Source: Thermodesulfobacteriota bacterium (GTDB taxonomy: Bacteria > Desulfobacterota_D > UBA1144 > Nemesobacterales > Mycalebacteriaceae). From it: a DNA stretch of 64,000 bases. Below, one piece after another: positions 1 through 58,779 of the stretch. The notes beneath the pieces were generated by a model. The model was not told where the DNA came from, ran no database searches, and was given only the letters and a program-made list of their open reading frames with translations. The position numbers and the translations under genes are program-made. Position 1 is the stretch's first letter, and each line of letters begins with the position of its first letter. The DNA lies in the NCBI GenBank assembly GCA_965205855.1, contig OZ242184.1, positions 320,001 through 384,000 of the forward strand, read 5' to 3'.

Positions 1-270
1 CTTCTTAAAGACTAACAAAGAATTAGTTGAAGGGGCTAAGTATGGTGGTTTGGTATTTAACATGTCAGATGCATTGATCGGAGGTATTTACACATACAAA
101 GAACATATTTCAATTGAGTTCAGCAATGGGGCTGATTTTACTGATACTAATTCTATTTTGGAGGGTGGCGGTAAAAAAAGACGACACATAAAAGTATAGA
201 CTGCCGATGATATTCTTAAAAGAATGTCGAATATTTTGTAAAACAAGCAATGAAACGGTTAAAGGAAACT
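1..270 (+). pseudogene. DUF1801 (YdhG-like) protein, 3' part, disrupted
   Basis: Frame 2 reads FLKTNKELVEGAKYGGLVFN...LIGGIYTYKEHISIEFSNGADFTD...LEGGGKKRRHIKV, then TAG at 197-199. A typical tail (DDILK/KNVEYFVKQAMK) continues only after a frameshift. AT-rich. Confidence 0.6.
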
Positions 271-275
271 ATCGA

Positions 276-411
276 ATGGTAAAATTTGGATACAATAAAC
301 TATGTCCATGATGTAGAGGTAGCTCTGTCATTCTTTGAAAAAACATTTGGGATGAAGCGACGCTTTATTTTTGATGTTGCCATTGAGGTGAATTCTACTC
401 CATTCACGTAA
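276..411 (+). pseudogene. VOC/glyoxalase-family fragment with frameshift
   Basis: ATG at 276 gives MVKFGY. A shifted frame gives INYVHDVEVALSFFEKTFGMKRRFI, the typical VOC N-terminal motif, then truncates. Confidence 0.5.
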
Positions 412-429
412 AAAAAAACGTGAATGACA

Positions 430-794
430 TTAAAGACTTGACCCTGTTCTCATCCCTGCGAAACAGGCAATCAGACACAGTGCGACTGACAGGAATATGT
501 TTAAAGCCGCCTTGCCCATCTGTCCGTTTTGTAAAAATACAGAGTCTCAAGTGAAAATGCGGAGAATGTCGTAAATCCGCCTAGCACACCGGTCATGAGG
601 AAAAGCCGCATTGTGTTGCCGTCCGTGCGGTCTTGCAGATACGCATAGAGAATCCCGATCAGGAACGAGCCGATAATGTTGACGCTCATTGTCGCCCACG
701 GGAAATTCAAGTTCGGAAACAGACGGAAAATTGTGTAACGAAAAGCCGAACCGATTGCGCCTCCGGTTATTACAAATATGTAGTTCCAGATCAT
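430..794 (-). CDS. crcB: Fluoride efflux channel CrcB/Fluc, with an apparent 1-nt frameshift near 533-537
   Basis: Motifs GGAIGSAFRY, FPWAT..VN and GVLGGFTTFSAF. Adding one T to the T5 run restores ...LYFLQNGQMGKAALNIFLSVALCLIACFAGMRTGSSL* ending at 430. Confidence 0.85.
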
Positions 795-796
795 TT

Positions 797-1990
797 TTAC
801 TTTTTTCCGCGCGAAACTGTCTCCGCGCCGTTTGCCGATACGATTTTCAAATAAGGGTTGCCGGTGTCGGAGCGGGTTTTAATAAAAATTAAATCCGCGT
901 CTTTTCCGGCTTCAATACTTCCGGTTTTGTCTTCAATAAAAAGAGATTTTGCCCCGCCGAGAGTGGAGATGTAAACTGCCTTTTGCGCGGCTTTTTCTTT
1001 TCCAAGCGGAAGCAGTAACTCGTTGAGCGCTTTTATTTCGTCAAAAAAATTCAAAGTCCGGTTGCTTGAAAGCCCGTCCGTTCCGAGACCCGTTCTTTCA
1101 AATTCCGCGTATTGCGTAACGGGTGCGGTTCCGGTGTTTAGAAATTTGTTGCTTCGCGGGCACAAAACAATTCCCATGTTCGAATCGCGTATAAGTTTTA
1201 TTTCATTTTTTTCCACATGCGCCATATGAACGGCGGTTGTTTTTGTTTTCCCGGAGTTTATTTTGTGAAAATAACTTAGCGGCGTCTTTGCGCGCGCGCG
1301 CGGCATCGGACACCTTCCGATTTCAAGATATATCTCTTTTTCAAATATATTTTCCTCTCCGCGCACAAAAGCCGTCTCTTCGGGACTTTCCGCCAGATGC
1401 GTTCCGGTGGGTGCGCCGGTCCGCGCCGATATTTCAAGAACCCTTTTTGTCAGTTCCGGAGAACAGGAATACGGGGCATGGGGAAAAAACCTTTCCTCAA
1501 ACCTTTTCCCGATTGCGCAAAGCGGGCTTAGATCCGCTTTTGTGTCGGTAATTTCACGGAAAAGAACCGTTCTGAGCGGAGAGTTTTTCAGTATTTTCGT
1601 GTCTTCGCCATAGGACGATATTTCACCGACCGTTGTTACGCCGCTTTTCAAAAGCGTTGCTACGCCGTCTTTTACGGAGTCTGCGATTTTTTCCGCAGTC
1701 GTGCCGGATTTTTTTGCGTCAACTACGTATTTGAGCCAGTCACCGAAATTTTTGAATTCATTTTCCGGTGCAAGCCATCCGAGCTCAAGATGCGTGTGAC
1801 AGTTCACAAATCCGGGCATGAGAATTCCACAGCCGAGGTCATGCACTGGCAGAGACGGAAAATGTTTTTTAATTTCTCCGGCTTTTCCCACCGCTTTGAT
1901 TATGCCGCCACAAACCGCGACTGCGCCGTTTTTCAGCGGCTCCGATGAAATCGGAAGAGCGACGGAGCAGACGATAATAAATCCGTTCAT
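797..1990 (-). CDS. Metal-dependent amidohydrolase (nucleoside deaminase-like; possibly aminodeoxyfutalosine deaminase)
   Basis: PGFVNCHTHLEL (HxH), PHAPYS, HLAESPEE, GTDG, GSIEAGKDAD motifs. Confidence 0.8.
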   Translation of the reverse strand: MNGFIIVCSVALPISSEPLKNGAVAVCGGIIKAVGKAGEIKKHFPSLPVHDLGCGILMPGFVNCHTHLELGWLAPENEFKNFGDWLKYVVDAKKSGTTAEKIADSVKDGVATLLKSGVTTVGEISSYGEDTKILKNSPLRTVLFREITDTKADLSPLCAIGKRFEERFFPHAPYSCSPELTKRVLEISARTGAPTGTHLAESPEETAFVRGEENIFEKEIYLEIGRCPMPRARAKTPLSYFHKINSGKTKTTAVHMAHVEKNEIKLIRDSNMGIVLCPRSNKFLNTGTAPVTQYAEFERTGLGTDGLSSNRTLNFFDEIKALNELLLPLGKEKAAQKAVYISTLGGAKSLFIEDKTGSIEAGKDADLIFIKTRSDTGNPYLKIVSANGAETVSRGKK

Positions 1991-2829
1991 CCCGTTTTCT
2001 GAAGCGCGTGGAGTTTTTTCACAAATTCGCCGCTCAATGTTCCGGCCGCCACTTCTTCTGCGGGACCGCTCATGCGGATGTCAAAATTTTTCGAGACCTC
2101 TATCTCAAGTTCGCCTCCGGGCATCGTGACCGTAACGGGGCTTTCGCATAGCCCGTTTTTCACCGCCGCCGCCGCCGCCGCGCATGAGCTTGAGCCAGAC
2201 GCGAGCGTGTATCCGGCGCCGCGCTCCCAGATGAAAATTTCAAGACGGTTTTTCGCCGCTGCGCGTGCAAACTGAACATTTGTCCTGTTCGGGAAAAACC
2301 CGTGGTTTTCAATCGCCGGACCGAACAGTTTTGTTTCCCTCTCGCCGGGACTGCCCGTGAAAATAACGCAGTGCGGATTACCGACAGACACTGCGGTGAA
2401 GGAAAAAAGTTTTCCCTCAGCCTCTATTTCCTCAAAGAGGACATTTCTCGAAAAAACGGCGCGTCCCATCTCCACCGTCACGCTGCAAACTTTGCCGTTT
2501 TCTGTTTTAATTTCCGCGCGAACTTCGCCGCCCGGAGTTTCAACGGAAAAACCGTCAGATACCGTATGTTCGTGCTCGCGGAGGAATTTGGCGAATATGC
2601 GTAAACCGTTGCCGCTTTTTTCCGCCTCGCTACCGTCCGGGTTGAATATCCTCAGACCGAAATCGGATTTTTGCGGTTTCGTAAGAAGCAGAATACCGTC
2701 CGAGCCGACCCCGTAATTGCGGTCGCATATAAGTTTGATCGCCTCCGGGGTGAGTTTGAATGAGAGGGAGTTTTCTTCAAGGGTTATGTAGTCATTGCCA
2801 AGTCCGTGAGATTTGACAAAAAAATCCAT
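1987..2829 (-). CDS. dapF: Diaminopimelate epimerase (Ser/Ser active-site variant)
   Basis: FVKSHGLGNDY, GVGSDG, IFNPDGSEAEKSGNG, VGNPH, FPNRTNVQF, WERGAGYTLASGS. Likely ATG at 2829. Confidence 0.9.
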   Translation of the reverse strand: MDFFVKSHGLGNDYITLEENSLSFKLTPEAIKLICDRNYGVGSDGILLLTKPQKSDFGLRIFNPDGSEAEKSGNGLRIFAKFLREHEHTVSDGFSVETPGGEVRAEIKTENGKVCSVTVEMGRAVFSRNVLFEEIEAEGKLFSFTAVSVGNPHCVIFTGSPGERETKLFGPAIENHGFFPNRTNVQFARAAAKNRLEIFIWERGAGYTLASGSSSCAAAAAAVKNGLCESPVTVTMPGGELEIEVSKNFDIRMSGPAEEVAAGTLSGEFVKKLHALQKTG

Positions 2830-2882
2830 CCGCTGCCCGCCTTGTTTTCTCAAATTACCGGTCGTTTCCTGCTTGCGGAACG

Positions 2883-3104
2883 TCAGTCTTTCATGTTTTC
2901 CAGAATAAAGGTTATGATTACATGAGCCCTATATTCGGCTATTTTCCCGTCTTCAATGTGGGCGTTCATTTTTGTAACCTCTATTCCCGTGAGTCCCCTA
3001 ATTGTTTTGTTCGCCCTTTCAAGAGCGTTGCGAACGGCATCGTCCCATGATATTTCGGACGAACCTATAACCTCTGATTTCCTTGCTACCTTTGGTGCGT
3101 TCAT
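2883..3104 (-). CDS. Dodecin-family flavin-binding protein
   Basis: EVIGSSEISWDDAVRNALERANKTIR...GKIAEYR. AAGGAGGAG RBS precedes the ATG at 3104. Confidence 0.9.
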   Translation of the reverse strand: MNAPKVARKSEVIGSSEISWDDAVRNALERANKTIRGLTGIEVTKMNAHIEDGKIAEYRAHVIITFILENMKD

Positions 3105-3279
3105 TTTGTTCTCCTCCTTGTTGTTGGAATGAAATAAATAATAATCAAAAAACGGTTTTTTTTCAAATTGAAGCCGCGACGAGACGCGCAAGCCGGAGGG
3201 TTTTTTCATTTGACAAAATTAGATACATAAATAGATTATAAAAACTCTCAAAAACGACAGGTGAGGAGGAATAATATTT

Positions 3280-4041
3280 ATGTTGGAAAAAATGCACGAC
3301 CTCAAGGGTCAGGTTGCCGTTGTAACGGGTGGCTCGCGTGGAATAGGGAAGGCGATTTCTCTTGCCCTCGCGGAGTCCGGAGCGGACATACTTCTTAATT
3401 ATGCAAGAAGCGACAAAGCCGCGCATGATGTGCAGAGAGAGATTGAATCTCTTGGAAGAAAATGCGTAACCGTGAGAGCGGATGTCGGGAATTTCACTCA
3501 GGCGCAGAATATCGGAAAAGCCGCCGTCAACCATTTCGGCAAGGTTAATATTCTTGTTAACAACGCCGGAGTCAACCGTGACAGGATGCTCAAAAGGATG
3601 ACTCTTGAGCAGTGGAACGAGGTTATACAGACAAACCTTTCAAGCGTTTTTAACTGCACAAAAGCGGTGCTTGACCCCATGCTTGAGAATGAAAACGGCG
3701 GGTCGATTGTTTCTATCTCATCAATCATAGGGGAAATGGGAAACATAGGGCAGGCAAACTACGCTTCAACAAAAGCCGGTATAACCGGCTTTACAAAAAG
3801 CATGGCGCGCGAGCTTTCCAGAAACAGGGTCAGAGTCAACGCCGTGGCTCCGGGCTTTGTTGAAACTGATATGCTCATGAGCGTTCCAGAAGATATAAGG
3901 AAGACAATTCTCAAGGACATACCGCTTGGCAGATTCGGCTCCGCCGAGGATGTGGCTCTCGCGGTTGTTTATCTGTGCTCCTCGGCCGGAAGCTGGATTA
4001 CCGGCACAACCCTGAGAATCAACGGCGGACACTACATCTGA
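3280..4041 (+). CDS. SDR-family 3-oxoacyl-ACP / acetoacetyl-CoA reductase (FabG/PhaB-like)
   Basis: TGGSRGIG, NNAG, NYASTK (YxxxK), NAVAPGF; GAGGAG RBS. Confidence 0.9.
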   Translation: MLEKMHDLKGQVAVVTGGSRGIGKAISLALAESGADILLNYARSDKAAHDVQREIESLGRKCVTVRADVGNFTQAQNIGKAAVNHFGKVNILVNNAGVNRDRMLKRMTLEQWNEVIQTNLSSVFNCTKAVLDPMLENENGGSIVSISSIIGEMGNIGQANYASTKAGITGFTKSMARELSRNRVRVNAVAPGFVETDMLMSVPEDIRKTILKDIPLGRFGSAEDVALAVVYLCSSAGSWITGTTLRINGGHYI

Positions 4042-4078
4042 TAGCAGAGACGGTTTTCCACCGGCGGTTGCGTTTCCG

Positions 4079-4105
4079 AAAAAAAAGCGGGGTTGTTGCC
4101 CGCTT
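4079..4105 (-). terminator. Putative intrinsic terminator of the prfA-ccsA unit
   Basis: On the minus strand, stem AAGCGGG/CCCGCTT followed by a T-run, between convergent genes. Confidence 0.55.
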
Positions 4106-4142
4106 GCGGTCGCCATTCGGGTTTTTTACTTGAAAATTAGGG

Positions 4143-4943
4143 TTAGCCCCCGATCAGGTGGTAACTCGCGCCAAACACCGCCACAATCGCGATGAAGCCC
4201 GCGATGGCGCCGAAGGAGGATTTTCTTCCCTTCCACCCGTAGGCGAATCTGCAGTTTATAAGAACGGCATATATAAGCCATGTCGCCACCGAAAGCGTCT
4301 CTTTGACTCCCCAGACCCAGTTGTTGCCCCATAGCTGGCTTGCCGAGACAAATCCCAGCGCGAGCCCCAGTGTTGCGAACGGAAAACCGTAGAGCAGACT
4401 TTTGTGCTGAATTCTGTCCAGAGCCGTTATCGGCAGAAAATCCTCGCCGCCTTCTCTGAGTGTTCCCTTTTTTATGCGCGGTTCCCTGAACAGATATAGA
4501 ACTGCGGTTACGAAAGCGACAAAGAAAAACGCCTGCCCCAGAAGAACAAGCGCTATGTGGGTTTGAATAAGCGGCTCCGCGACAACCGGGCTGCTTTCTC
4601 CAGAGCCCGCAAACGGGATTACGGACGGAACGGTTGCGGTGAAAGCGAGCGTGAAAACAAACGTCCCCAGCGCGGATTTGCCCGTTTTTGATTCCAGAGA
4701 CAGAAGCGCTATCACGGCAAACCATGAGAACAGAAAAAGCGATTTCACAAGCCCACCGACAAGCGGCTCGTCGGTGAAAAACAGAAGGGCAATTTTCGCC
4801 GTATGTGCGGCAAAGCCCGCCACCCCGAACACCAAACCCACGCGCCGCGCGCGCGGCGGGCCTCCTGCGACAAGCAGGATGAAAAACACCGATGAGATAA
4901 AATAGGAAGAGGAGACGAGGATGTTCAGTATCGAGTTATCCAT
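4143..4943 (-). CDS. ccsA: Cytochrome c biogenesis CcsA / HemX-like membrane protein
   Basis: Multiple TM helices, conserved His (QTHIAL), W-rich WGNNWVWGVKET..W..Y motif. Confidence 0.75.
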   Translation of the reverse strand: MDNSILNILVSSSYFISSVFFILLVAGGPPRARRVGLVFGVAGFAAHTAKIALLFFTDEPLVGGLVKSLFLFSWFAVIALLSLESKTGKSALGTFVFTLAFTATVPSVIPFAGSGESSPVVAEPLIQTHIALVLLGQAFFFVAFVTAVLYLFREPRIKKGTLREGGEDFLPITALDRIQHKSLLYGFPFATLGLALGFVSASQLWGNNWVWGVKETLSVATWLIYAVLINCRFAYGWKGRKSSFGAIAGFIAIVAVFGASYHLIGG

Positions 4944-6009
4944 TTGAGTTTTCCCGTGTTTGATCGGATTTCGCCGTGCTTACAAGCGCGTCAACAAGCT
5001 TCTGGATGCCGCCGTTCATTACCGTCTCTATGTTTGACAGTGTAAGACCCGTTCTGTGGTCTGTTACGCGCGACTGTGGAAAATTGTAGGTTCTTATTTT
5101 TTCGCTCCGCTCGCCGCTTCCGAGTTGCTTTTTTCTCTCTCCAGCCCGCTCGCTTGTTTGCCTATTTCTTTCTTCCTCATATAGCTTTGCCCTGAGCATC
5201 CTCATGCTTTGCGTGCGGTTTTTATGCTGCGACCTTTCACTCTGGCACTGTACCACTATTCCGGTCGGAATGTGCGTTATGCGCACTGCGGAATCGGTTT
5301 TATTCACATGTTGCCCTCCCGGTCCGGATGCTTTGTAGGTGTCAACCTTTATGTCTTTTTCATCCACTTCCACGTCCACTTCCTCGGGTTCTGCAAGAAC
5401 GGCCACAGTTGCCGTTGAGGTGTGGATTCTTCCCCCCGTTTCGGTTGTGGGAACCCTTTGAACCCTGTGGACTCCGCTTTCGTGTTTAAGGCTTTCAAAA
5501 ACGTTTTTTCCCTCAATCGTGGTAATCGCTTCCCTGATTCCGCCGATTTCAGTTTCGCTGACCCCCATGAGGCTCATCTTCCATCCGCGCTCCTCGCAGT
5601 ATCTGGAATACATTCTCAGAAGGTTGGATGCGAAAAGAGTCGCTTCTTCGCCTCCCGCTCCGGGGCGTATCTCAAGTATGACGTTTTTCCCGTCGTTGGG
5701 GTCTTTTATGACAAGCATTTCCCCTATCCTGTCTTCCCATTCGTCGCTTTTCTTTTTCAGGGCTTCTATTTCGGCGCGCGCGAGTTCGGACAGTTCCGGA
5801 TCTTTCAAAATCGGGGTGTTTTCCTCAATCCGCGCGAGCAATTCTTTGTAATGTCTGTATGCGGAAACGGTTTCTGATATTTCGGCGATTTCCCTTGAAA
5901 GGCTCACTATCTCGCCGGGCGTTATCCCGGGCTCTCCGAGCCGTTTTTCCTTTTCCATGTATCCGGCTTCAAATTCTTCAAGGGTTTTGAGGGTTTTGGG
6001 ATTGAGCAT
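4936..6009 (-). CDS. prfA: Peptide chain release factor 1
   Basis: GVHRVQRVPTTE (PxT), GPGGQHVNKTDSAVR, RTYNFPQ. Likely ATG at 6009. Confidence 0.97.
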   Translation of the reverse strand: MLNPKTLKTLEEFEAGYMEKEKRLGEPGITPGEIVSLSREIAEISETVSAYRHYKELLARIEENTPILKDPELSELARAEIEALKKKSDEWEDRIGEMLVIKDPNDGKNVILEIRPGAGGEEATLFASNLLRMYSRYCEERGWKMSLMGVSETEIGGIREAITTIEGKNVFESLKHESGVHRVQRVPTTETGGRIHTSTATVAVLAEPEEVDVEVDEKDIKVDTYKASGPGGQHVNKTDSAVRITHIPTGIVVQCQSERSQHKNRTQSMRMLRAKLYEEERNRQTSERAGERKKQLGSGERSEKIRTYNFPQSRVTDHRTGLTLSNIETVMNGGIQKLVDALVSTAKSDQTRENSNG

Positions 6010-6034
6010 TGTAACCGGATTAGGTTCCCACACC

Positions 6035-6063
6035 TTGAACAAATTTCAAGAAAGTATTACAAT
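6035..6063 (+). promoter_or_regulatory. Putative sigma70 promoter of the zapB-zapA-ygfA-rny unit
   Basis: TTGAAC-17 bp-TACAAT just upstream of ATG 6081. Confidence 0.5.
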
Positions 6064-6080
6064 CTAATCGGAGTCAGATT

Positions 6081-6287
6081 ATGAATTCTGTCAAGAACCT
6101 TGAAAACAAGATACTTGAATGCACAAAGCACGCGGATGAATTTATAAACGACTATGAGAAAATTGTTTTGGAAGTCAGGGAGTTAAAAAAAACCATTGAA
6201 AGGCTTCAGGCGGAAAGAAAGGAGTTGAGACGCAGAATAGACGACGTGGTGGAAAGTGTGGAAAACCATGTTAATTCGCGTACGTAG
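6081..6287 (+). CDS. Small coiled-coil protein, ZapB-like
   Basis: 68-aa coiled coil directly upstream of zapA. Confidence 0.65.
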   Translation: MNSVKNLENKILECTKHADEFINDYEKIVLEVRELKKTIERLQAERKELRRRIDDVVESVENHVNSRT

Positions 6288-6293
6288 TAACCC

Positions 6294-6656
6294 ATGGCGG
6301 ATTATAAAAAACGGGTTGATGTTGAAATAGGAGCTTTCGGTTCCACATACAGGGTGAAAGCGGTGCCCGAAAATGAGGGGCGCCTGAAACAAGCCGCCGC
6401 CTTGCTGGAAAAGAAAGTGGAAGAATTTTCAACGGATTTGAAAAAAACTCTGAACACTCCGATACCGGATCAACTTTTCTTTGCCGCGCTCATTATAGCC
6501 GACGAAATGCTTATGTTGAGGGAACAAAATGAAGAAGACAAAGAGTCGCGCAAATCACGGATTGACGAACTTGAACAGGTTGTGGACAAATCTCTTATCT
6601 CCAGATTTATTAAACTCAAAATGGCTTATGGAGCCGAGAGAAAAGAAGGTAGCTGA
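6294..6656 (+). CDS. zapA: Cell division protein ZapA
   Basis: VDVEI..FGSTYRV, RLKQAAALL, AALIIADE; conserved context. Confidence 0.8.
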   Translation: MADYKKRVDVEIGAFGSTYRVKAVPENEGRLKQAAALLEKKVEEFSTDLKKTLNTPIPDQLFFAALIIADEMLMLREQNEEDKESRKSRIDELEQVVDKSLISRFIKLKMAYGAERKEGS

Positions 6657-7263
6657 ACACTCGGCTTCCCGCGCGCATATTTCAAAAACGGAAATACGGA
6701 GCCGCTTTTCCCGTTTGAGGGAAGCGAAGCCCCCCTCTGTGCTTAAGGCCCTGAGCTCCCGTATTGCCACCGGTATTTGCGGTAGCCGCATATTCCGGGA
6801 TTCGTCAAACATCGCCCTCTATTTTCCCGTTCGCGGGGAGGCGGATGTTACCGCCATACTGCCGGAGATCGCCAAATGCGGAAAAAGGGCTTTCCTGCCC
6901 AGAGTCTGCGGAGACCGTCTGCGGTTTTTTGAGGTTACCTCCGCCGCCGGTCTTTTGCCGGGTGCTTTTTCAATTCCCGAACCGCCCGAAGACCCTGAGC
7001 GCGAGATAGAAGTTTGTGAACTTGACCTTATGGTTGTTCCGGGAGTCTGCTTTGATGTCTTCGGCTCAAGGGTTGGATACGGAAAGGGTTTGTACGACCG
7101 TGCGGCTTGCGATTTGAGTCCCGAAAAACTCTGCGGTGCGATGTATCTGTTCCAGTTTGTGGATTTTGAACTTCCGCACGAGCCGCACGACAGAAGGGTC
7201 GGATTTATGGCGACAGAGCGCGGAGTGTTGCGCATGAAAAAACAAAGGAGTGAAAAAAAATGA
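6628..7263 (+). CDS. ygfA: 5-formyltetrahydrofolate cyclo-ligase
   Basis: IALYFPVRGEAD, IPEP, DLMVVPGVCFD..G.RVGYGKGLYDR, PHEPHD. Start uncertain. Confidence 0.9.
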   Translation: MEPREKKVAEHSASRAHISKTEIRSRFSRLREAKPPSVLKALSSRIATGICGSRIFRDSSNIALYFPVRGEADVTAILPEIAKCGKRAFLPRVCGDRLRFFEVTSAAGLLPGAFSIPEPPEDPEREIEVCELDLMVVPGVCFDVFGSRVGYGKGLYDRAACDLSPEKLCGAMYLFQFVDFELPHEPHDRRVGFMATERGVLRMKKQRSEKK

Positions 7264-8822
7264 CTGACATAATCTACATAGCGGCGGTCGGTGTGGTTTG
7301 CTTTCTGGCGGGTTTTTTGATCAACCGTTTTATTATCTCTGAGAGAGAAAGGAAAAATCTGTCCTCAAAGACCGTTCTTGCTAAACGGATAGTTGAAAAA
7401 GCGAAAAAAGACGGGGAAAAAATCCTCAAAGACGCGGATACGAGAGCCTCGGAGGTTATGCGCAAAAAGAAGCTACAATTTGAGAAATCCGATAAGGACA
7501 AACGCAGAGATTTACTCCACGCCGAGCAGAAAGTCCAGAAAAATCAGGAACTGGTGAACAAAAAACTTCAAGATGTTCAGGAGAGAGAGGCGGATATCAA
7601 CCGCAGGCAGAAGAGTCTTGATTCGCTTGAGGACTCTATCGGCGAAAGACACGGCGAGATAGATACAATCAAGACCGAGATGAAAAAGCGGCTTGAGGAG
7701 TTGTCCGGTATGTCCGCCGAAGAAGTTAGAAGCGAGATGATTAAAAACATTGAGGAGGAAGCCAGAAAGGAGTCGTCCCTGATGGTCAGGGAGATAGAGG
7801 ATGAAGCCGAAGCCGGGGCCAAGGAAACCGCGACAAAGATCATCGCGCTTGCCGTGCAGAGGTATGCCGGCAAATACACGGCGGAAAACACATCCTCAAC
7901 GGTCACGCTTCCCGACCCGAACATAAAGGGGAAGATAATAGGGCGCGAGGGCAGGAACATCAGGGCTCTTGAGATACGCACGGGGGTTGATTTTGTTATG
8001 GACGAGTCGCCCGACACGGTCGTTCTGACAAGTCTGAACTCTCTGCGGCGCGAAATCGCGGTAATAGCTCTAAAGCGGCTTCTTGACGACGGCAGGGTGC
8101 ATCCCGCGAGAATTGAAGAAATAGTAAGCGAGGTTGAGGAGGAGATAAACAAGGACATTAAAAAGGCCGGCGAAGGAGCGGTTTTTGAGCTTGGAATACA
8201 CGATATGGACCCCGAGCTTGTGCGTCATGTGGGAATGCTTAAATACAGAAGAAGTTACGCGCAGAATATGCTCAACCATTCGCTGGAGGTGGCGTTTATC
8301 TGCGGGATGCTTGCCGCGGAGATAGGATACGACCAGAACCTCGCCAAACGCGCCGCACTTCTTCATGATGTGGGTAAAGCGGTTGACCATGAAGTGGAAG
8401 GCACGCATATGGAGATAGGGGCGGAACTCGCGAGAAAATACAAGGAAAACCCGCTTGTTGTGAATGCAGTCGCAAAAAGTCACGATTCGCGCATTGACGA
8501 TGTTCTTTCCATCATTGTTCAGGCTGCAGACGCGATTTCCGCGGCGCGTCCCGGAGCGAGAAAAGAGAGTTACGAGAAATATATCAAAAGAGTTGAAGAG
8601 ATAGAGGAAATAGGAGGCTCGTTCAACGGGGTCAGCAAGTGTTTCGCCGTGCAGGCAGGCAGAGAGTTGCGCGTTATAGTTGAAAACTCCTCTGTGGACG
8701 ACAAAGAGAGCGCCGTTCTCTCAAAAGACATTGCTAAGAAGATAGAGAAGGAAGTCAATTATCCGGGTAAGATAAAAATAACCGTGATAAGGGAAACCCG
8801 CGCGGTCGCGTATGCGTCTTAG
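7260..8822 (+). CDS. rny: Ribonuclease Y
   Basis: N-terminal TM, coiled coil, KH (KGKIIGREGRNIR), HD (LLHDVGK). Confidence 0.97.
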   Translation: MTDIIYIAAVGVVCFLAGFLINRFIISERERKNLSSKTVLAKRIVEKAKKDGEKILKDADTRASEVMRKKKLQFEKSDKDKRRDLLHAEQKVQKNQELVNKKLQDVQEREADINRRQKSLDSLEDSIGERHGEIDTIKTEMKKRLEELSGMSAEEVRSEMIKNIEEEARKESSLMVREIEDEAEAGAKETATKIIALAVQRYAGKYTAENTSSTVTLPDPNIKGKIIGREGRNIRALEIRTGVDFVMDESPDTVVLTSLNSLRREIAVIALKRLLDDGRVHPARIEEIVSEVEEEINKDIKKAGEGAVFELGIHDMDPELVRHVGMLKYRRSYAQNMLNHSLEVAFICGMLAAEIGYDQNLAKRAALLHDVGKAVDHEVEGTHMEIGAELARKYKENPLVVNAVAKSHDSRIDDVLSIIVQAADAISAARPGARKESYEKYIKRVEEIEEIGGSFNGVSKCFAVQAGRELRVIVENSSVDDKESAVLSKDIAKKIEKEVNYPGKIKITVIRETRAVAYAS

Positions 8823-10927
8823 ACGTTGTCCCGCGGCTGAGGATTTTGCCCAGCCTTTGCCGTTTCTATCTTTGACAGATCGCCCACTTTGAAGAAGAGG
8901 TCTTTTATTCCGCCGAGCAGAGCCGCGCGGTTTTTTCTTATACGGGCGTTCTTGTGCATTACCATTGTGCTTTCAAAAAAGTCGTCCACGGGTTTGCCGA
9001 GTGATTCCAACAGTTTGAGATAAGCCCCGTAGTCCGACGGTTGCGGTAATTTTTCAATTTGTACAAGTGCTTTCCACAGGTTTTTTTCCGCCGCGCCTTC
9101 AAATAAAGTCTCATCAACCTTCCCGCGCGCGCTGTCTCCGAGGATATTCACAACTCTTTTGAAGGACACCGCGAGTGCGCCGAAGGAGCGGGATTTTCTT
9201 GAGTTTTCAAGCGCGTCAAGACGTGCCCGACAGTCGGTAACGCTGTCGAACCGAGCCGATATGACGGCTTCCAGAGAGTCCGGTTTCGCTCCGCGCTCGG
9301 TCATAATTCCCCTGAACCTTCCCGCGATAAAATCGGTTATTTCCCCGCGTATCAGGTTTGTGTCTGTATACGGGGGGACGGAATATGAGCCCTTTTCCAT
9401 AAATTTGAGGCAGAAGTCCGCAAGTTGCGGAACGCTGAATTTGAGGTTTTTTTCAAGTGTTATGCGTATGAGCCCGATCGCCTGTCTTCTGAGCGCGTGA
9501 GGGTCGGAGGAACCGGTCGGCTTCATTCCCAGATAGAAGCAGGCGCAGATATTGTCCATTTTGTCCGCAATCGCGAGCAATGCTCCCGTGTCGGTTTGAG
9601 GCAAAACGGAGTCTCTTGCGGTGGGCATATATTGTTCCTCAATCGCCGCGCAAACCTCTTTGTCTTCCCCTACGGCTTCGGAGTAGTGTCTTCCCATAAC
9701 GCCCTGAAGTTCGGGAATCTCAAAAACCATCTGTGTTACAAGGTCGGCTTTTGAGAGGGTCGCCGCCCTTTTGAGTTTTTTCAGACCTTTTTGTCCGCAA
9801 AGACGCGCGACCCGGTCGGCGGTTTTTTCCAGACGCGCGGTTTTGTCGCCGTAGCTTCCGAGGCCGGAAAGGAAAATGGTTGACTCAAGTTCTCCAAGAT
9901 TGCTTTCAAGCGGTTTTTTCAAATCCTCTGTGTGGAAAAATTCCGCGTCCGTAAAACGCGCCCGCAAAACCCTTTCATTGCCCCTGATTACCGTTTCGGG
10001 GGTTTTCACCGGAGTTCCGCACACGAAAACAAAATACGGCATAATCTCGCCCGTGGCGGAGAATACGGGAAAGTATTTCTGATGTTTTTTCATCACGCTT
10101 GTAAGAACCTCTTCGGGCAGATTGAGGAACTGTTTCTCAAATCTTCCCGAAAGCACAACCGGATACTCTACAAGCCCGTTTACAGAGCTCAGAAGCTCGT
10201 TGTCCTGCCGGAAGACGCCACCGAGTTTCTCCGTTTCCGAGCGGACTTTTTTCTCTATGATTTTCAGCCGCTCATCGGGGTCGGCTATGACAAAATTCTT
10301 CCTCAGGCCTTCGAGATATGTTTCCCATCCGGCGGGTTTGAAAGGTTCTCCTCCCGCGAACCTGTGACCGGAGACGGTTGTTGAAAAAGGTACTCCTTCC
10401 ATCTCCATTGCAAGCGGCTCTCCTCCGTAGAAGCATGACACCTTCCTGACCGGCCTTGCGAACGCCGCGCTTGCTCTTTGCCACCTCATTGACTTCGGAC
10501 ACCGTACTCCCGCGATGATTGAAGAGATGTTTTGCGAGATTATTTGCCCCGATTCCTTGCCCTTTATTTTTTGTCTGAATGCGAGAAACCTGCCTTTTTC
10601 TCTTTCCACTATCTCAAGGTCTTCCACGCGCGCACCCTTGCCTCGGGCAAACCCGAGCGCGGCGGGAGTCGGGGAGCCGTTTTCGGAAAACGCCGATGCC
10701 TCCGAGGGGCCGAAATTTTCAACCACCGTGTCTTTCTGTCTTGTCTCAACCCCGCCGACCATGAGGGCGAGTCGCCTGGGGGTGTGAAGGCACAAGATTT
10801 TTTCAAAACCGACCGACAGCTCACGGAATTTGTTCTCAAAATTTTCGCATAGCGAGCGGGCGATTTCCGGCGCCATTGTCGCGGGAATCTCCTCAACTGT
10901 CATTTCCATGAAAAAGTCTTTTTTCAT
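8819..10927 (-). CDS. glyS: Glycine-tRNA ligase beta subunit
   Basis: [44 protein letters not shown] 10927 overlaps the glyQ stop (ATGA). Confidence 0.95.
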
Positions 10928-51878: not shown

Positions 51879-54464
<2,586 letters not shown>

Positions 54465-54467
54465 GTT

Positions 54468-57023
54468 ATGCAGGACTATTCGCGATTTCTCAGCCGTTGT
54501 TCAAGTTGGGAGCAGTTTTCGGATTACACAGGCTCCCTGAAAACCGCGAAAGAGAAGGGCGACCTTTTTGAAAAACTGGTTTGGACATATCTGACAGTCC
54601 ATCCCGAATACAGGACAAAGCTTTCCAATGTTTGGTTGCTCCGCGATGTTCCGCAGGCGGTTACCCGCAAGCTCAATCTTCCGTCTGCCGACGAGGGTAT
54701 AGACCTGATTGCGCAAGCTCGCGGCGGCGGGTTCTGGGCGATACAGGCAAAATACAGGTCTGACAAAGACAAAGCGCTGAACACCCGCGACCTTGCGAAG
54801 TTTTTGCACCTTTCTTTTACCCATTGTAACGGCATAACCCACGGCGTTATTGCGCACACGACTTCAAAGCCCGTACGGAAAAAAAATTTGCTTGGTAATG
54901 TGGTTGAAATCGGTCTTTCGCGCTGGCAGGAACTCTCGCCCGAAGGGTGGGACGCAATCCGCGCGAAGGTGGCGAACAAGGTTCACAATCTCGTGCCGCG
55001 CAAACCGAGGAGACATCAGAAGGCGGCAATCGCCAACATACGCAAGCATTACGCGGAAGAAAAAAAGCCGAGGGGCAGGATGATTATGCCTTGCGCGTCC
55101 GGAAAAAGTCTCACGGCGTTCTGGGCAGCGCAAGCCCTTAAAGCGAAGACGGTTGTTCTTGCCGTGCCGAGTCTTTTGCTCGTAAAGCAAAGCGTCAAAG
55201 ACTGGACTCGCGAGTATCTCGCCCATAATGAGACACCGGACTGGCTTTGTGTTTGCAGCGATGAGACTGTTGGCAAGATAGAGGACAGTTTTGTTTCAAA
55301 CATATACGAAACGGGGCTTCCGACCACAACGGACGCAAAAGAGATAGCAGACTTTCTGAGAAAACGCTCATCTGTGCCGAGGGTGATTTTTACAACCTAC
55401 CAAAGCAGTCCCCGGCTTGCGGAGGCGGCGCGCAAGTCCGGGCGCGAGATAGACCTCTGCATACTGGACGAAGCGCACAAGACAGTCGGGGAAAAAGATT
55501 CCGCTTTTGCGACCTTGCTTGACAACAGGAAACTGAAAATCAAAAGGCGGCTTTTTATGACTGCCACAGAAAGGGTTCTTCACGGAAAAAACGATGAAGT
55601 TCTGTCAATGGATGACGAGCGGACTTACGGCGGGTGTTTTTATCAACTCACATTCAGGCAAGCGATTGAGGACGGCATTATATGCGATTATAAGATTCTG
55701 ACTCTTACGATTTTGGACGCGCAGGTACGCGAGATTGTTGAGAGAAACAGACTTGTGAAAGACAGATTGCTTGCTCAGCAGACCCGTGAGTCCGCGCCGC
55801 TTGCCGCGGGAATTGCGCTCGGCAAGGTGTTCAACGAACACTGCATTAAACACGCGGTTTCATTTCACAAAAGCATAAAATCCGCTACCGATTTCAAATC
55901 CCAGCAGGAAGACCTTTCAAAGTCTCGCGTTATCAAAACAAAGATTGAGAACTTTCATATTTCAAGCAATCTGTCCGCCGGAGAGCGAACGGTTGTGATG
56001 CGCGATTTTGAGCAATCCCAAAGGTCTCTTATAACAAACGCCAGATGTTTGACCGAAGGGGTTGATGTTCCCGCGATTGATTGTGTTCTTTTTGCAGATC
56101 CCAAGCACAGCGTTATTGACATTGTTCAAGCGGCGGGAAGGGCGATGCGTCCGAAAGAGGGAAAAGAGAGGGGCTACATACTCCTGCCGATTGTTGTGCC
56201 GGACGGGATGAGTGTTGAGGAATTTGCGGAAACAACCCCGTTCAAAAAGGTTGCAAGTCAGATTACCGCGCTGTCCACTCAGGACGAGAGAGTCAAGGAA
56301 GAGTTCAGGGCGATTACCGAAGGGAAAAGGCCAAGCGCGCAAGGGCGGCTTTTTTCAATCAGCGGCGATGTTCCCGCCGGAATGAATATCAGTCTCAAAC
56401 AGTTTTCCGATGCGATTGAAAGCAAAATTTGGGAAAAGGTTGCCAAAGTTAATTGGAGGGTTTTTAAAGAAGCGCGGGATTATGCGCAGTCGTTGAGACT
56501 AAAAAGTGCAACGGAATGGCGCGAACACACAAAGTCATCCGATTTTCCGTCAGATATTCCTGTTGATCCCAACCGAACATACAAAGACAAAGGATGGGTT
56601 AATTGGGGAGATTGGCTTGGGACTGGAAATATAGCTAATTTTCTCAAAGAGTACCGTTCTTTTAAAGAAGCGCGGGATTATGCGCAGTCGTTGCAACTAA
56701 GAAGTAGAACGGAATGGCGCGAACACACAAAGTCATCCGATTTTCCGTCAGGTATTCCTGTTGATCCCTACCGAACATACAAAGACAAAGGATGGGTTAA
56801 TTGGGGAGATTGGCTTGGGACTGGAAATATAGCTAATTTTCTCAAAGAGTACCGTTCTTTTAAAGAAGCGCGGGATTATGCGCAGTCGTTGAGACTAAAA
56901 AGTGCAACGGAATGGCGCGAACACACAAAGTCATCCGATTCTCCGTCAGATATTCCTGTTGCTCCCGACCAAATATACAAAGACAAAGGATGGGTTAATT
57001 GGGGAGATTGGCTTGGAAAATAA
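54468..57023 (+). CDS. Mrr-like endonuclease - SF2 (DEAH) helicase with C-terminal integrase-repeat-like (INT_rpt) tandem repeats
   Basis: KGDLFE...DEGIDL...AIQAK; MPCASGKS, TTYQS, DEAH, MTAT, NARCLTEGVD, QAAGRAMR; three FKEAR...GW..W.DWLG repeats. Confidence 0.85.
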   Translation: MQDYSRFLSRCSSWEQFSDYTGSLKTAKEKGDLFEKLVWTYLTVHPEYRTKLSNVWLLRDVPQAVTRKLNLPSADEGIDLIAQARGGGFWAIQAKYRSDKDKALNTRDLAKFLHLSFTHCNGITHGVIAHTTSKPVRKKNLLGNVVEIGLSRWQELSPEGWDAIRAKVANKVHNLVPRKPRRHQKAAIANIRKHYAEEKKPRGRMIMPCASGKSLTAFWAAQALKAKTVVLAVPSLLLVKQSVKDWTREYLAHNETPDWLCVCSDETVGKIEDSFVSNIYETGLPTTTDAKEIADFLRKRSSVPRVIFTTYQSSPRLAEAARKSGREIDLCILDEAHKTVGEKDSAFATLLDNRKLKIKRRLFMTATERVLHGKNDEVLSMDDERTYGGCFYQLTFRQAIEDGIICDYKILTLTILDAQVREIVERNRLVKDRLLAQQTRESAPLAAGIALGKVFNEHCIKHAVSFHKSIKSATDFKSQQEDLSKSRVIKTKIENFHISSNLSAGERTVVMRDFEQSQRSLITNARCLTEGVDVPAIDCVLFADPKHSVIDIVQAAGRAMRPKEGKERGYILLPIVVPDGMSVEEFAETTPFKKVASQITALSTQDERVKEEFRAITEGKRPSAQGRLFSISGDVPAGMNISLKQFSDAIESKIWEKVAKVNWRVFKEARDYAQSLRLKSATEWREHTKSSDFPSDIPVDPNRTYKDKGWVNWGDWLGTGNIANFLKEYRSFKEARDYAQSLQLRSRTEWREHTKSSDFPSGIPVDPYRTYKDKGWVNWGDWLGTGNIANFLKEYRSFKEARDYAQSLRLKSATEWREHTKSSDSPSDIPVAPDQIYKDKGWVNWGDWLGK
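56463..57017 (+). repeat. Intragenic tandem repeat, 198-bp unit, about 2.8 copies
   Basis: Units start at 56463, 56661 and 56859 (TTTAAAGAAGCGCGGGATTATGCG...). Unit 1 vs 2 differ at 7 nt. Confidence 0.97.
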
Positions 57024-57051
57024 GCCGCTTTCAATTTCCGATTGGGGGCTA

Positions 57052-58779
57052 TCAGATTTTAAATTGGACGCTAATCAATAATCCCACAACCCTTTCCGCC
57101 GCTTTCTCAATCTCAACATTCTCCGTCTTATCCGTCAGGCGGTTCTTAACCTCAACCACTCCGTTTTTGAGTCCTCTCGGTCCCGCGATAATCTGAAACG
57201 GAATTCCAATCAGCTCGCAGTCTTTGAATTTTACGCCCGCGCTTTCGTCCCTGTCGTCAATCAGGGCGTCTATGCCCGCTTCAATGAGTTTTTTATAGAT
57301 GCCTTCTGCGACCGAAACTGTTTGCTCATTGCCCATGCTTGTTGGAATAACGGCGACTTCAAAAGGCGCTATGGCGGGCGGAATAACCATTGATTTGCCG
57401 TCGTTGTTCTGCTCTATTGCGGCGGCGGCGGTTCTGCCTATTCCTATTCCGTAACATCCCATTACAAACGGCTTCTCGCTTCCGTCCGAATCGGTGAAAG
57501 CAGCCTCCATCGCCTCGCTGTATTTTGTTCCGAGCATAAAAACATGGCCAACCTCTATGCCCCTTATTGAAGACAGTTTTCCGCCTTCGCACGACGGGCA
57601 GCCGTCCCCGTCCGCTGCGACACGGATGTCAAGAAATGCGTCCGGGGTGAAATCCCTTCCTTCGCTCACATTTGTTATGTGCGCGTCTTTTCTGTTAGCG
57701 CCCGCAACGGCATTTGTCATTGCGCGAATTGAAATGTCCGCAACTATTTTGACTTTCTCCTTCATTCCCACGGGCCCGCTGAAACCCACCGCGCCGCCGC
57801 AGACGCGCATAATCTCTTCCGCATTCGCAAGTTCGGCGGTTTCTGTGCCGAGCGCCTTTTTCAGTTTTGTCAGACTGAGTTCCCCGTCTCCGCGCACAAG
57901 AGCGGCAACCGTCCCGTCGTTTGTTGAAATAATCATCGTCTTTATCAAATCGGACGGACTTACTCCGAGAAATTTTGCGACATCCCCGACCGTTTTCATC
58001 CCCGGAGTTTCAACCTCACTGATTTCGCCGGGGTTTGCTCCAGTTTTTTCCGTCTCCGCTTCCGCTACCCCCGCAAGTTCGAGGTTTGCCGCATAGCCGC
58101 ACTTTTTACATGTCATCACAACATCCTCGCCCGTGGGAGCGAGAACCATGAACTCGTGCGACTCGCTTCCGCCGATGTTTCCCGTGTCCGCAAGCACGAC
58201 ACGAAACTCAAGGCCACAACGTTTGAAAATTCTGTTGTATGCGTCAAACATTTTTCCGTATGAGATTTTTGCGTTCTCAACAGAGGAGTCAAAGCTGTAT
58301 GCGTCCTTCATTATAAATTCGCGCGCGCGCATTATGCCGAAACGGGGGCGGATTTCATCCCTGAATTTTGTCTGTATCTGATAGAAATTCACGGGAAGGT
58401 CTTTGTAGGAACGTAAATCTCTCGCGGCTAGGTCGGTGATTATCTCCTCATGCGTGGGGCCTATGCAGAAATCCCTGTCCGCTCTGTCGTGCAAACGCAG
58501 GAGTTCCTTGCCGTAATGGTCCCACCTGCCGCTTTTTTTCCAGAGCTCGGCGGGAAGAACGGTCGGAAGAAGCGCCTCAATCGCGCCCGAAGTGTTCATC
58601 TCTTCACGGACTATTTTTTCTATTTTTCTCAAAAATCGCAGACCGAGCGGCAGATAGTCGTATATTCCCGCCGCGACTTTTCTTATCATCCCGGCGCGCG
58701 CCATAAGTTTGTGGCTTGCGACTTCAGCGTCCGCGGGGTCGTTCTTGAGAGTCGGTATGAAATATGAGGAAAATCTCAA
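57052..58779 (-). CDS. proS: Proline-tRNA ligase (with INS editing domain)
   Basis: SHKLM.RAG, GPTHEE, FRDEIRPRFG, GIEVGH.F, MGCYGIG. Likely TTG at 58779. Confidence 0.97.
   Translation of the reverse strand: MRFSSYFIPTLKNDPADAEVASHKLMARAGMIRKVAAGIYDYLPLGLRFLRKIEKIVREEMNTSGAIEALLPTVLPAELWKKSGRWDHYGKELLRLHDRADRDFCIGPTHEEIITDLAARDLRSYKDLPVNFYQIQTKFRDEIRPRFGIMRAREFIMKDAYSFDSSVENAKISYGKMFDAYNRIFKRCGLEFRVVLADTGNIGGSESHEFMVLAPTGEDVVMTCKKCGYAANLELAGVAEAETEKTGANPGEISEVETPGMKTVGDVAKFLGVSPSDLIKTMIISTNDGTVAALVRGDGELSLTKLKKALGTETAELANAEEIMRVCGGAVGFSGPVGMKEKVKIVADISIRAMTNAVAGANRKDAHITNVSEGRDFTPDAFLDIRVAADGDGCPSCEGGKLSSIRGIEVGHVFMLGTKYSEAMEAAFTDSDGSEKPFVMGCYGIGIGRTAAAAIEQNNDGKSMVIPPAIAPFEVAVIPTSMGNEQTVSVAEGIYKKLIEAGIDALIDDRDESAGVKFKDCELIGIPFQIIAGPRGLKNGVVEVKNRLTDKTENVEIEKAAERVVGLLISVQFKI

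Follow-up and report, generated by a model that had tools for sequence, protein, structure and literature searches.

A nuclease-motor protein with a candidate recognition array of INT_rpt-type repeats in a Mycalebacteriaceae genome

The stretch of 64,000 nucleotides analysed here (hereafter the window) comprises positions 320,001 to 384,000 of contig OZ242184.1 (GenBank assembly GCA_965205855.1) of a Thermodesulfobacteriota bacterium of the family Mycalebacteriaceae. It contains a gene for a nuclease-helicase protein, P0001, which ends in nearly identical tandem repeat units that differ from each other by amino-acid-changing substitutions. What such an array does in a nuclease, and what the differences between its units mean, is the question that this locus raises. 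A sequence-only reading had answered it with a modular, diversifying recognition array that directs the attached enzyme. From our domain, family and codon analyses, P0001 appears to be a restriction-like nuclease-motor protein with an undescribed recognition module. The more specific proposal, that it is a translocating nuclease derived from Type ISP enzymes whose target choice is set by a modular array of nucleic-acid-binding repeats, is one in which we place about as much belief as doubt.

The nuclease-motor protein and its repeat array

P0001 carries an N-terminal Mrr-type nuclease domain, followed by the two cores of a superfamily 2 (SF2) ATPase (Table 1), in which motifs I, II, III and VI were found. 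Residues D79, Q93 and K95 of the nuclease are invariant in 75 aligned homologues and kept in P0001, as are the Walker A, DEAH and motif VI residues, and the enzyme therefore looks intact by its catalytic motifs. The closest solved relative is LlaBIII (4xqk, E 8.4e-66), with residues 24-612 of P0001 aligned to its residues 27-651, followed by LlaGI (5ffj, E 2.5e-49). The top PADLOC model, with 6e-101, is that of a Type IIG/ISP enzyme-methyltransferase, matched over its first 645 positions; a weak match to mREase_IV (29.5 bits) concerns the helicase part only. The coupler family PF22240 gave no match in P0001 at E up to 0.01, and no ISP_coupler match was found with Pfam in the connector (residues 612-665) between the LlaBIII-like part and the first repeat unit; the library did match ISP_coupler in a control relative from the same order at 3.6e-48. 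No methyltransferase family was found in P0001, residues 666-851 being the repeat array. The array occupies the place held by the methyltransferase and target-recognition domains in Type ISP enzymes. A full Type ISP gene with Mrr_cat_2, SF2, ISP_coupler and N6_Mtase is present in a genome of the same order (G014; locus L009, 1462-4863), and its product is 34% identical to P0001 across the nuclease-motor part.

Tandem Repeats Finder, applied to positions 55000-58500, detected a single array at 56462-57016 with a period of 198 bp, 2.8 copies, 94% matches, no indels and a score of 1026, which lies in frame at the 3' end of the P0001 open reading frame (ORF). The three 198-bp units, the third of them partial, and all differences listed in the sequence-only reading were reproduced exactly. 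Units 1 and 2 differ at 7 nucleotides in 5 codons (R12Q, K14R, A16R, D31G and N37Y), units 1 and 3 by F28S, D35A, N37D, R38Q and T39I, and codon 37 has three states (AAC, TAC and GAC, for N, Y and D). Within codons 1-52 all 12 nucleotide differences are amino-acid-changing and fall at first or second codon positions; at the array end, unit 3 has a GGG/GGA difference at codon 53, plus T54K. The short terminal unit ending in DWLGK is the normal array end in the family. In the host genome the 198-bp repeat was found in the P0001 gene only, and the 90% identity cluster of P0001 has a single member. The array as the target of a diversity-generating retroelement was considered and rejected: no RVT_1 match to a reverse transcriptase was obtained in the 1.40-Mb host genome, although control genomes did match, the repeat is present in one gene, and the changes extend beyond adenines.

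The repeat family and its hypervariable positions

The sequence-only reading had likened the unit to the INT_rpt repeat. P0001 itself stays below the INT_rpt cut-off of 26.5 bits (17.5 bits for the whole protein, 24.1 for the C-terminal 251 residues), and the likeness rests on homologues that pass that cut-off, as do 23 of the 48 homologous array proteins scanned, with up to 100.8 bits. A search with the P0001 unit matches those array proteins at E down to 1e-227, and the closest clusters to the P0001 repeat in the protein atlas carry PF14882. INT_rpt is listed among the repeat families without a structure in PMC8078820, and our literature search, which left most subscription journals outside its reach, found no study on the function of INT_rpt/PF14882 or of nuclease-helicase arrays. 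Clustered at 50% identity, the proteins that the unit matches at E of 0.001 or below form 5578 clusters, and a single protein carries as many as 17 units. Its conserved columns are P29, D31, I32, P33, P36, Y40, G44, W45 and D50-G53, and the tandem units of P0001 carry the corresponding core, P-x-D-I-P ... Y ... G-W ... D-W-L-G. PHROGs matches were limited to generic helicase families and unnamed families. Matches of array proteins to GIDA_C_1st (26.2 bits) and Exonuc_X-T_C (39.5 bits summed over P0008) cover short stretches and were not used.

In 532 units from 71 distant arrays, within-array entropy is highest at positions 37, 38, 16, 35, 20 and 17. A set of 121 proteins gave a very similar picture, and the same six hypervariable positions recur across phyla; the two variable patches that had been noticed in P0001 are thus real across the family. 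The six-residue signatures are distinct in 697 of 709 units, which leaves no small residue alphabet. By their framework nucleotides, on the other side, 30 of 35 units are closest to another unit of the same array, and the frameworks are therefore homogenised within species. In a codon model of the 35 units, the ratio of nonsynonymous to synonymous rates (omega) was 2.8 at the six codons versus 0.35 at the other 46, with twice the log-likelihood difference (2dlnL) being 12.8 versus omega = 1. The array of G005, the closest one, gave a 2dlnL of 18 when analysed alone; its units differ from each other by two or three nucleotides at codons 16, 17 and 20, and 23 of its 52 codons are identical across all eight units. 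The same model was not significant on the arrays of G001 (L006) or G003 (L007) alone. Nonsynonymous (pN) and synonymous (pS) differences per site were compared in 46 arrays from 43 loci, which are not fully independent, using unit pairs with a framework pS below 0.35. At the six codons pN exceeded framework pS in 39 of these arrays (sign test 9e-7). The patches have been kept different while the rest of the unit was homogenised, and the dN/dS ratio, which had been named as a check on diversification, came out above 1 at the six codons, with the variation concentrated rather than scattered. The patch VAPDQI of unit 3 matches units 1 and 8 of the congener G001 at 17 of 18 nucleotides, and at least some of the difference between the P0001 units is thus older variation that has persisted rather than fresh substitution.

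The P0001 units were also set against chance. The lack of any synonymous change among the 12 nucleotide changes has a P of 0.02-0.08, depending on kappa and on whether nucleotides or codons are counted; taken alone it is weak evidence, as the sequence-only reading had itself cautioned. The changes are clustered, with five of the seven in unit 2 inside 14 nucleotides (P 0.001) and four of the five in unit 3 inside 13 nucleotides (P 0.006). Positions 16, 17, 20, 35, 37 and 38 had been fixed beforehand on the 71 distant arrays, with the host genus excluded, and they hold four of the nine variable codons of the P0001 array (hypergeometric P 0.006). These six codons have 6 changes on about 13 nonsynonymous sites versus none on about 33 synonymous sites of the whole unit (Fisher P 2e-4, or 1e-3 allowing one synonymous step). 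The mosaic pattern that had been described gave a weak signal in a single-breakpoint test (P 0.05 counting nucleotides, 0.11 counting codon events), and the pattern is explained equally well by a star-like history in which unit 1 is the majority type.

An AlphaFold2 model of residues 655-851, built on a 141-row alignment of three-unit windows, has a mean predicted local distance difference test score (pLDDT) of 92.8, with dips at the linkers, and a predicted template modelling score (pTM) of 0.57. Because pLDDT is high while pTM is low, the model suggests separate modules, like beads on a string, and it gives no sign of a rigid solenoid. In the modelled unit, four helices span positions 1-10, 16-23, 36-39 and 48-52, followed by a conserved linker (53-66). 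The spacing of positions 16, 17, 20 and 21 would, by helical periodicity, put them on a common face of helix 2, opposite or beside residue 22 and the conserved W19, which is predicted to be buried. Covariation of the pairs 16-20, 35-38 and 20-37 hints that the two variable patches are close together in space. Q, R, K, N, S, T, D and E predominate at the hypervariable positions. Both framework and linker are conserved and mostly basic, and the net charge per unit averages +3.9 over 596 units.

Among 48 scanned representatives that have a part outside the array, the recognised parts are of two kinds only: Mrr_cat_2 and SF2 standing before the array, as in P0001, or SF2 and Methyltransf_8 standing after it. 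The second architecture, with an N-terminal array, SF2 (ResIII/Helicase_C) and an Rrp8-like Methyltransf_8, is common in cyanobacteria (P0195, P0199 and P0183; loci L039, L047, L051, L083, L087 and L091). The idea that the two architectures form a restriction-modification pair was rejected, since no relative of the nuclease-helicase was found at E of 1e-20 or below in four of five methyltransferase-form genomes; in the fifth the match is a 1609-residue ORF with 35% identity. Array genes were located at 80 loci from species genomes, covering many bacterial phyla and Nitrosopumilus, and at 13 loci on viral contigs, and 5 of 50,697 phage records match. Some of them encode arrays without an enzyme domain. 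A Nitrosopumilus contig (L092, about 31-9341) has at least six tandem array-only ORFs with 4-8 units each and a seventh with a single unit, a cluster of paralogous array-only genes in an archaeon, and two near-identical viral contigs (L102 and L103, of 501 and 308 kb; 2-6729) have six tandem array-only ORFs with 3-8 units. Other viral contigs hold the array-SF2 form (L097, L099 and L100) or the nuclease-helicase form (L104). The jumbo phage Xanthomonas phage Xoo-sp13 encodes a 345-residue 'hypothetical protein' with about two repeat units (L114, 2677-3714), and phage XacN1 and two jumbo phages of Stenotrophomonas likewise have about two units.

The expectation that repeat number varies was borne out. 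Four of five congeners have an orthologue, with 6, 8, 9 and 9 units versus 2.8 in P0001, and the fifth (G002) is without the gene. Of the ORFs at 48 distant loci of nuclease-helicase genes, 44 are complete; 43 of these have 4-14 units (mode 7), and one, broken, has a single unit. The gene on a SAR86 chromosome (L080, about 5767-8360) seems broken, as its 742-residue ORF ends after one unit and a separate 175-residue ORF holds three more. Among the 120 closest relatives by the N-terminal part, 28 have 0-2 units and, at the protein level, mostly end inside a unit or continue into a short tail of unrelated sequence, as expected of truncated or frameshifted genes; P0001 is alone in having three units and ends normally. 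Its array is the shortest properly ended one among the arrays examined.

What the array may bind

We infer that the array binds nucleic acid, most likely DNA, that the variable residues determine what is bound, and that the array, once bound, positions or licenses the attached SF2 motor and Mrr-type nuclease as a defence against foreign DNA. P0001 would then be a single-polypeptide, ATP-driven translocating nuclease of Type ISP lineage, in which tandem four-helix INT_rpt-type modules would replace the coupler, methyltransferase and target-recognition domains. Each module would show a variable polar surface, formed by the helix-2 face (16, 17, 20 and 21) and the start of the short helix 3 (35, 37 and 38) and resting on the conserved, mostly basic framework and linker. 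The array would evolve by gain and loss of units and homogenisation of frameworks, with the contact patches kept different, as in PRDM9/KRAB arrays, and that of P0001 may be a recently contracted or re-expanded three-unit allele. In favour of nucleic acid as the ligand, all recognised fusion partners of the array act on nucleic acids.

Several observations weigh against this interpretation. The gene lies behind gyrB in three congeneric species with genomes of 1.2-1.6 Mb, and the rate of evolution of its N-terminal part is about as low as that of proS (among congeners, the N-terminal 620 residues of P0001 are 71-76% identical, gyrB 72-81% and proS 75-80%); slow evolution and linkage to gyrB also fit a housekeeping role in DNA transactions. 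No methyltransferase or other modification partner was found in or beside the gene, so a sequence-reading nuclease would need another way to spare its host, and we can name none. A small-alphabet code was rejected, given six or more variable positions and nearly unique signatures, and a simple code is unlikely. At the hypervariable codons the apparent pS is high too, so that anciently kept divergence and faster amino-acid change are not separable there; recombination between units violates the single-tree assumption of the codon test, which fitted free branch lengths on six codons. Unit 1 of P0001 has a net charge of only about +1. The unit matched no solved DNA-binding fold. For the three-unit model, Foldseek found nothing in the PDB at E of 0.001 or below (best 1.1), and 11 of the 48,161 chains compared by VIA-align reached a Z of at least 2, the best being RepB at 3.4; a profile of the unit sequence found nothing in the PDB better than E 0.074. 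These null searches do not show a new fold. Finally, three units are fewer than in any intact relative examined, and the P0001 allele may work poorly.

The rival that survives best, though we consider it unlikely, is that the array serves as a tether for nucleic acid without specificity, or as a processivity module; the hypervariable sites would then be unconstrained surface, and the P0001 pattern would result from chance and patchy gene conversion. The conserved, basic framework and linker, the nearly unique signatures (697 of 709, as expected of unconstrained sites), the high apparent pS at the hypervariable codons and the modest P of 0.02-0.08 for the synonymous-free pattern alone agree with a tether. 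Neutral sites should nevertheless match the synonymous divergence of the framework, whereas these diverge faster in 39 of 46 arrays, with an omega of 2.8. The identity of the six positions across phyla, the retention of a six-residue patch between species while frameworks were homogenised, and the bias of the variable sites towards polar, hydrogen-bonding residues also speak against unconstrained surface. If the array is only a tether, the result shrinks to a large family with unusual concerted evolution.

Somewhat less probable still is an array that senses ligands other than nucleic acid, for instance proteins of phages, with independent units whose binding switches on the motor-nuclease. 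The bead-like units of the model, the very high diversity of signatures, the tandem array-only genes in Nitrosopumilus and on viral contigs, and the lack of a DNA-binding fold in the fold searches would all suit a protein sensor, which is harder to reconcile with the mean charge per unit, the position of the array at the place of the target-recognition domain and fusion partners that all act on nucleic acids.

We regard it as improbable that the P0001 array is a collapsed remnant (2.8 versus 6-9 units in congeners) under relaxed constraint and heading for loss. Its shortness and the absence of the gene from one species of the genus point in that direction, as do D31G and F28S, which fall at low-entropy positions (0.46 and 0.76 in the 121-protein set; 0.51 and 0.72 in the 71 arrays); position 31 is D in 86% of the units of the 121-protein set, and F at position 28 is the state of the genus itself. 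Under relaxed constraint one would expect changes that are synonymous and scattered, whereas those observed are clustered and none is synonymous; in addition the ORF is intact, all catalytic motifs are kept and the terminal unit ends normally.

Copy number was assessed with contigs of four public runs placed on 55800-57600, of which X1-X3 possibly come from the source sample and X4 from a second study. The short-read contigs break at the repeat, as expected. In run X1 the flanking contigs have depths of 506 and 479, a unitig specific to unit 2 (56664-56736) 490, segments common to two units 950-951, and a 34-nucleotide segment common to all three units 1400. No variant letters or alternative joints were found across the array in the contigs of the four runs. 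Run X4 carries unit 1 (56467-56620) without any difference at a depth of 2.8. In run X3 the repeat unitigs (56462-56689) are shallower, at 54 and 52 versus 125 and 115 in the flanks (about 0.43x), which may stem from strain heterogeneity in the array. With one-, two- and threefold depths in X1 and no variant joints, the three copies are real, and not an assembly collapse, as far as contigs can show. That the unit differences or their number are an artefact of a longer collapsed array, a concern raised with the original observation and one to which the contig breaks, the 6-9 units of congeners and the X3 depths would lend themselves, is highly improbable in view of the X1 depths, the lack of variant letters or joints in the four runs and the unchanged unit 1 in the second study.

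If the array reads nucleic acid, as the Type ISP-derived reading proposes, thousands of proteins annotated as 'DEAD/DEAH box helicases' would be a new kind of restriction-like enzymes. Their target choice would be encoded in an array whose units turn over and whose patches diversify, and not in a methyltransferase-linked domain. This would be a new recognition principle in prokaryotic defence and a bacterial parallel to zinc-finger arms races, and the small helical module could serve binder engineering.

Genomic context and comparison with known systems

The ATG of the P0001 gene lies 3 nucleotides past the gyrB stop codon (Table 1), with a convergent proS downstream, and gyrB and the P0001 gene may be co-transcribed. 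The gyrB frame opens with a TTG at 51945, which is overlapped by a promoter-like site at 51933-51961 (11 of 12 positions agree with the consensus). For this reason gyrB probably starts further downstream, and both gyrB and the nuclease-helicase gene could be driven from this site. The order gyrB, nuclease-helicase gene, proS is common to the host, G003 and G004, and thus to three of the five gene-bearing species. In G001 the gene lies between a tetratricopeptide repeat (TPR) gene and a haloacid dehalogenase (HAD) hydrolase gene, about 230 kb from the gyrB-proS site, where gyrB adjoins the convergent proS at about 560 bp (L110, 2-3189), so that the site is empty. In G005 the gene is also located away from gyrB-proS. 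Within the class, 5 of 120 sampled genomes, representing 1 of 32 genera, contain the repeat, and the other 115 gave no match. When the 470 neighbouring ORFs of the 48 distant loci were clustered, no family occurred in more than three loci. From this distribution the P0001 gene appears to be a lone gene, horizontally spread and long kept by the genus.

Table 1. Positions in the window of the P0001 gene, its domains and repeat units, and the upstream gene
Feature	Position	Strand	Basis or remark
gyrB, directly upstream of the P0001 gene	51945..54464	+	Order with the P0001 gene and proS shared with two congeners
ORF P0001, 851 residues: nuclease, SF2 motor and repeat array	54468..57023	+	ORF call
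Mrr_cat_2 PD-(D/E)xK nuclease domain, residues 44-134	54597..54869	+	Pfam, 57 bits (cut-off 22)
SF2 ATPase N-core (ResIII/DEAD), residues 179-367	55002..55568	+	Pfam; Walker A G212-K213, DEAH 334-337
SF2 ATPase C-core (Helicase_C), residues 465-562	55860..56153	+	Pfam; motif VI Q554, G557, R558, R561 invariant
Connector between LlaBIII-like part and unit 1, residues 612-665	56301..56462	+	Alignment; W655 and W663 nearly invariant
Repeat unit 1, 66 residues	56463..56660	+	Majority state at all variable codons but codon 37
Repeat unit 2, 66 residues	56661..56858	+	Own states Q12, R14, R16, G31, Y37
Repeat unit 3, 54 residues, short terminal unit ending DWLGK, then stop	56859..57020	+	Own states S28, A35, D37, Q38, I39

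A Type ISP enzyme, as described in PMC4666363, is a single chain of Mrr nuclease, SF2 motor, coupler, methyltransferase and recognition domain. P0001 resembles LlaBIII and LlaGI in having an N-terminal Mrr-family nuclease and then an SF2 motor in one chain, but it lacks the coupler, the gamma-class N6-adenine methyltransferase and the target-recognition domain, the motor being followed by the repeat array instead. It thus lacks three of the five features of the type. Type IV enzymes of the SauUSI kind also have no methyltransferase and unite nuclease, SF2 ATPase and C-terminal recognition part in one chain; they differ from P0001 in the nuclease family and the recognition domain. Pfam INT_rpt (PF14882), the integrase repeat unit, describes the same kind of tandem unit as that of P0001; its model spans only about positions 26-53 of the P0001-type unit, and no integrase domain was found among the array proteins scanned here.

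The loose likeness to transcription activator-like effectors (TALEs) drawn in the sequence-only reading did not hold in detail. TALE repeats are near-identical tandem units that differ at few positions, whereas the P0001-type unit, a bead-like module of 66 residues and four helices in the model, is about twice as long and has at least six variable positions in two patches. The two-residue code with a small alphabet that characterises TALEs is absent from the family, given its 697 distinct signatures in 709 units.

By analogy, the pattern in the P0001 family resembles PRDM9 zinc-finger arrays more than TALEs. Zinc fingers contact DNA through positions -1, 3 and 6. The arrays of PRDM9 and of KRAB C2H2 proteins share with the P0001 family a minisatellite-like coding array, frameworks homogenised within a lineage, a changing number of units and selection at few positions, which in zinc fingers are the ligand-contact ones. 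The INT_rpt-type unit differs in having no zinc ligands, 66 residues versus 28, a prokaryotic distribution and a fusion to a nuclease-motor part, and the likeness is one of analogy, not membership. For the PRDM9 zinc fingers, PMC2779102 reports concerted evolution together with positive selection at the DNA interface. More speculatively, the INT_rpt-type arrays could be a prokaryotic counterpart of the PRDM9/KRAB arrays: germline-encoded, rapidly re-assorting helical modules of 66 residues with about six contact residues per unit that would set specificity, and which would aim a translocating nuclease (or an SF2-methyltransferase) at foreign DNA. We advance only tentatively the idea that they would thus form a widespread class of innate immune receptors in bacteria, archaea and large viruses, and possibly a programmable DNA-binding scaffold.

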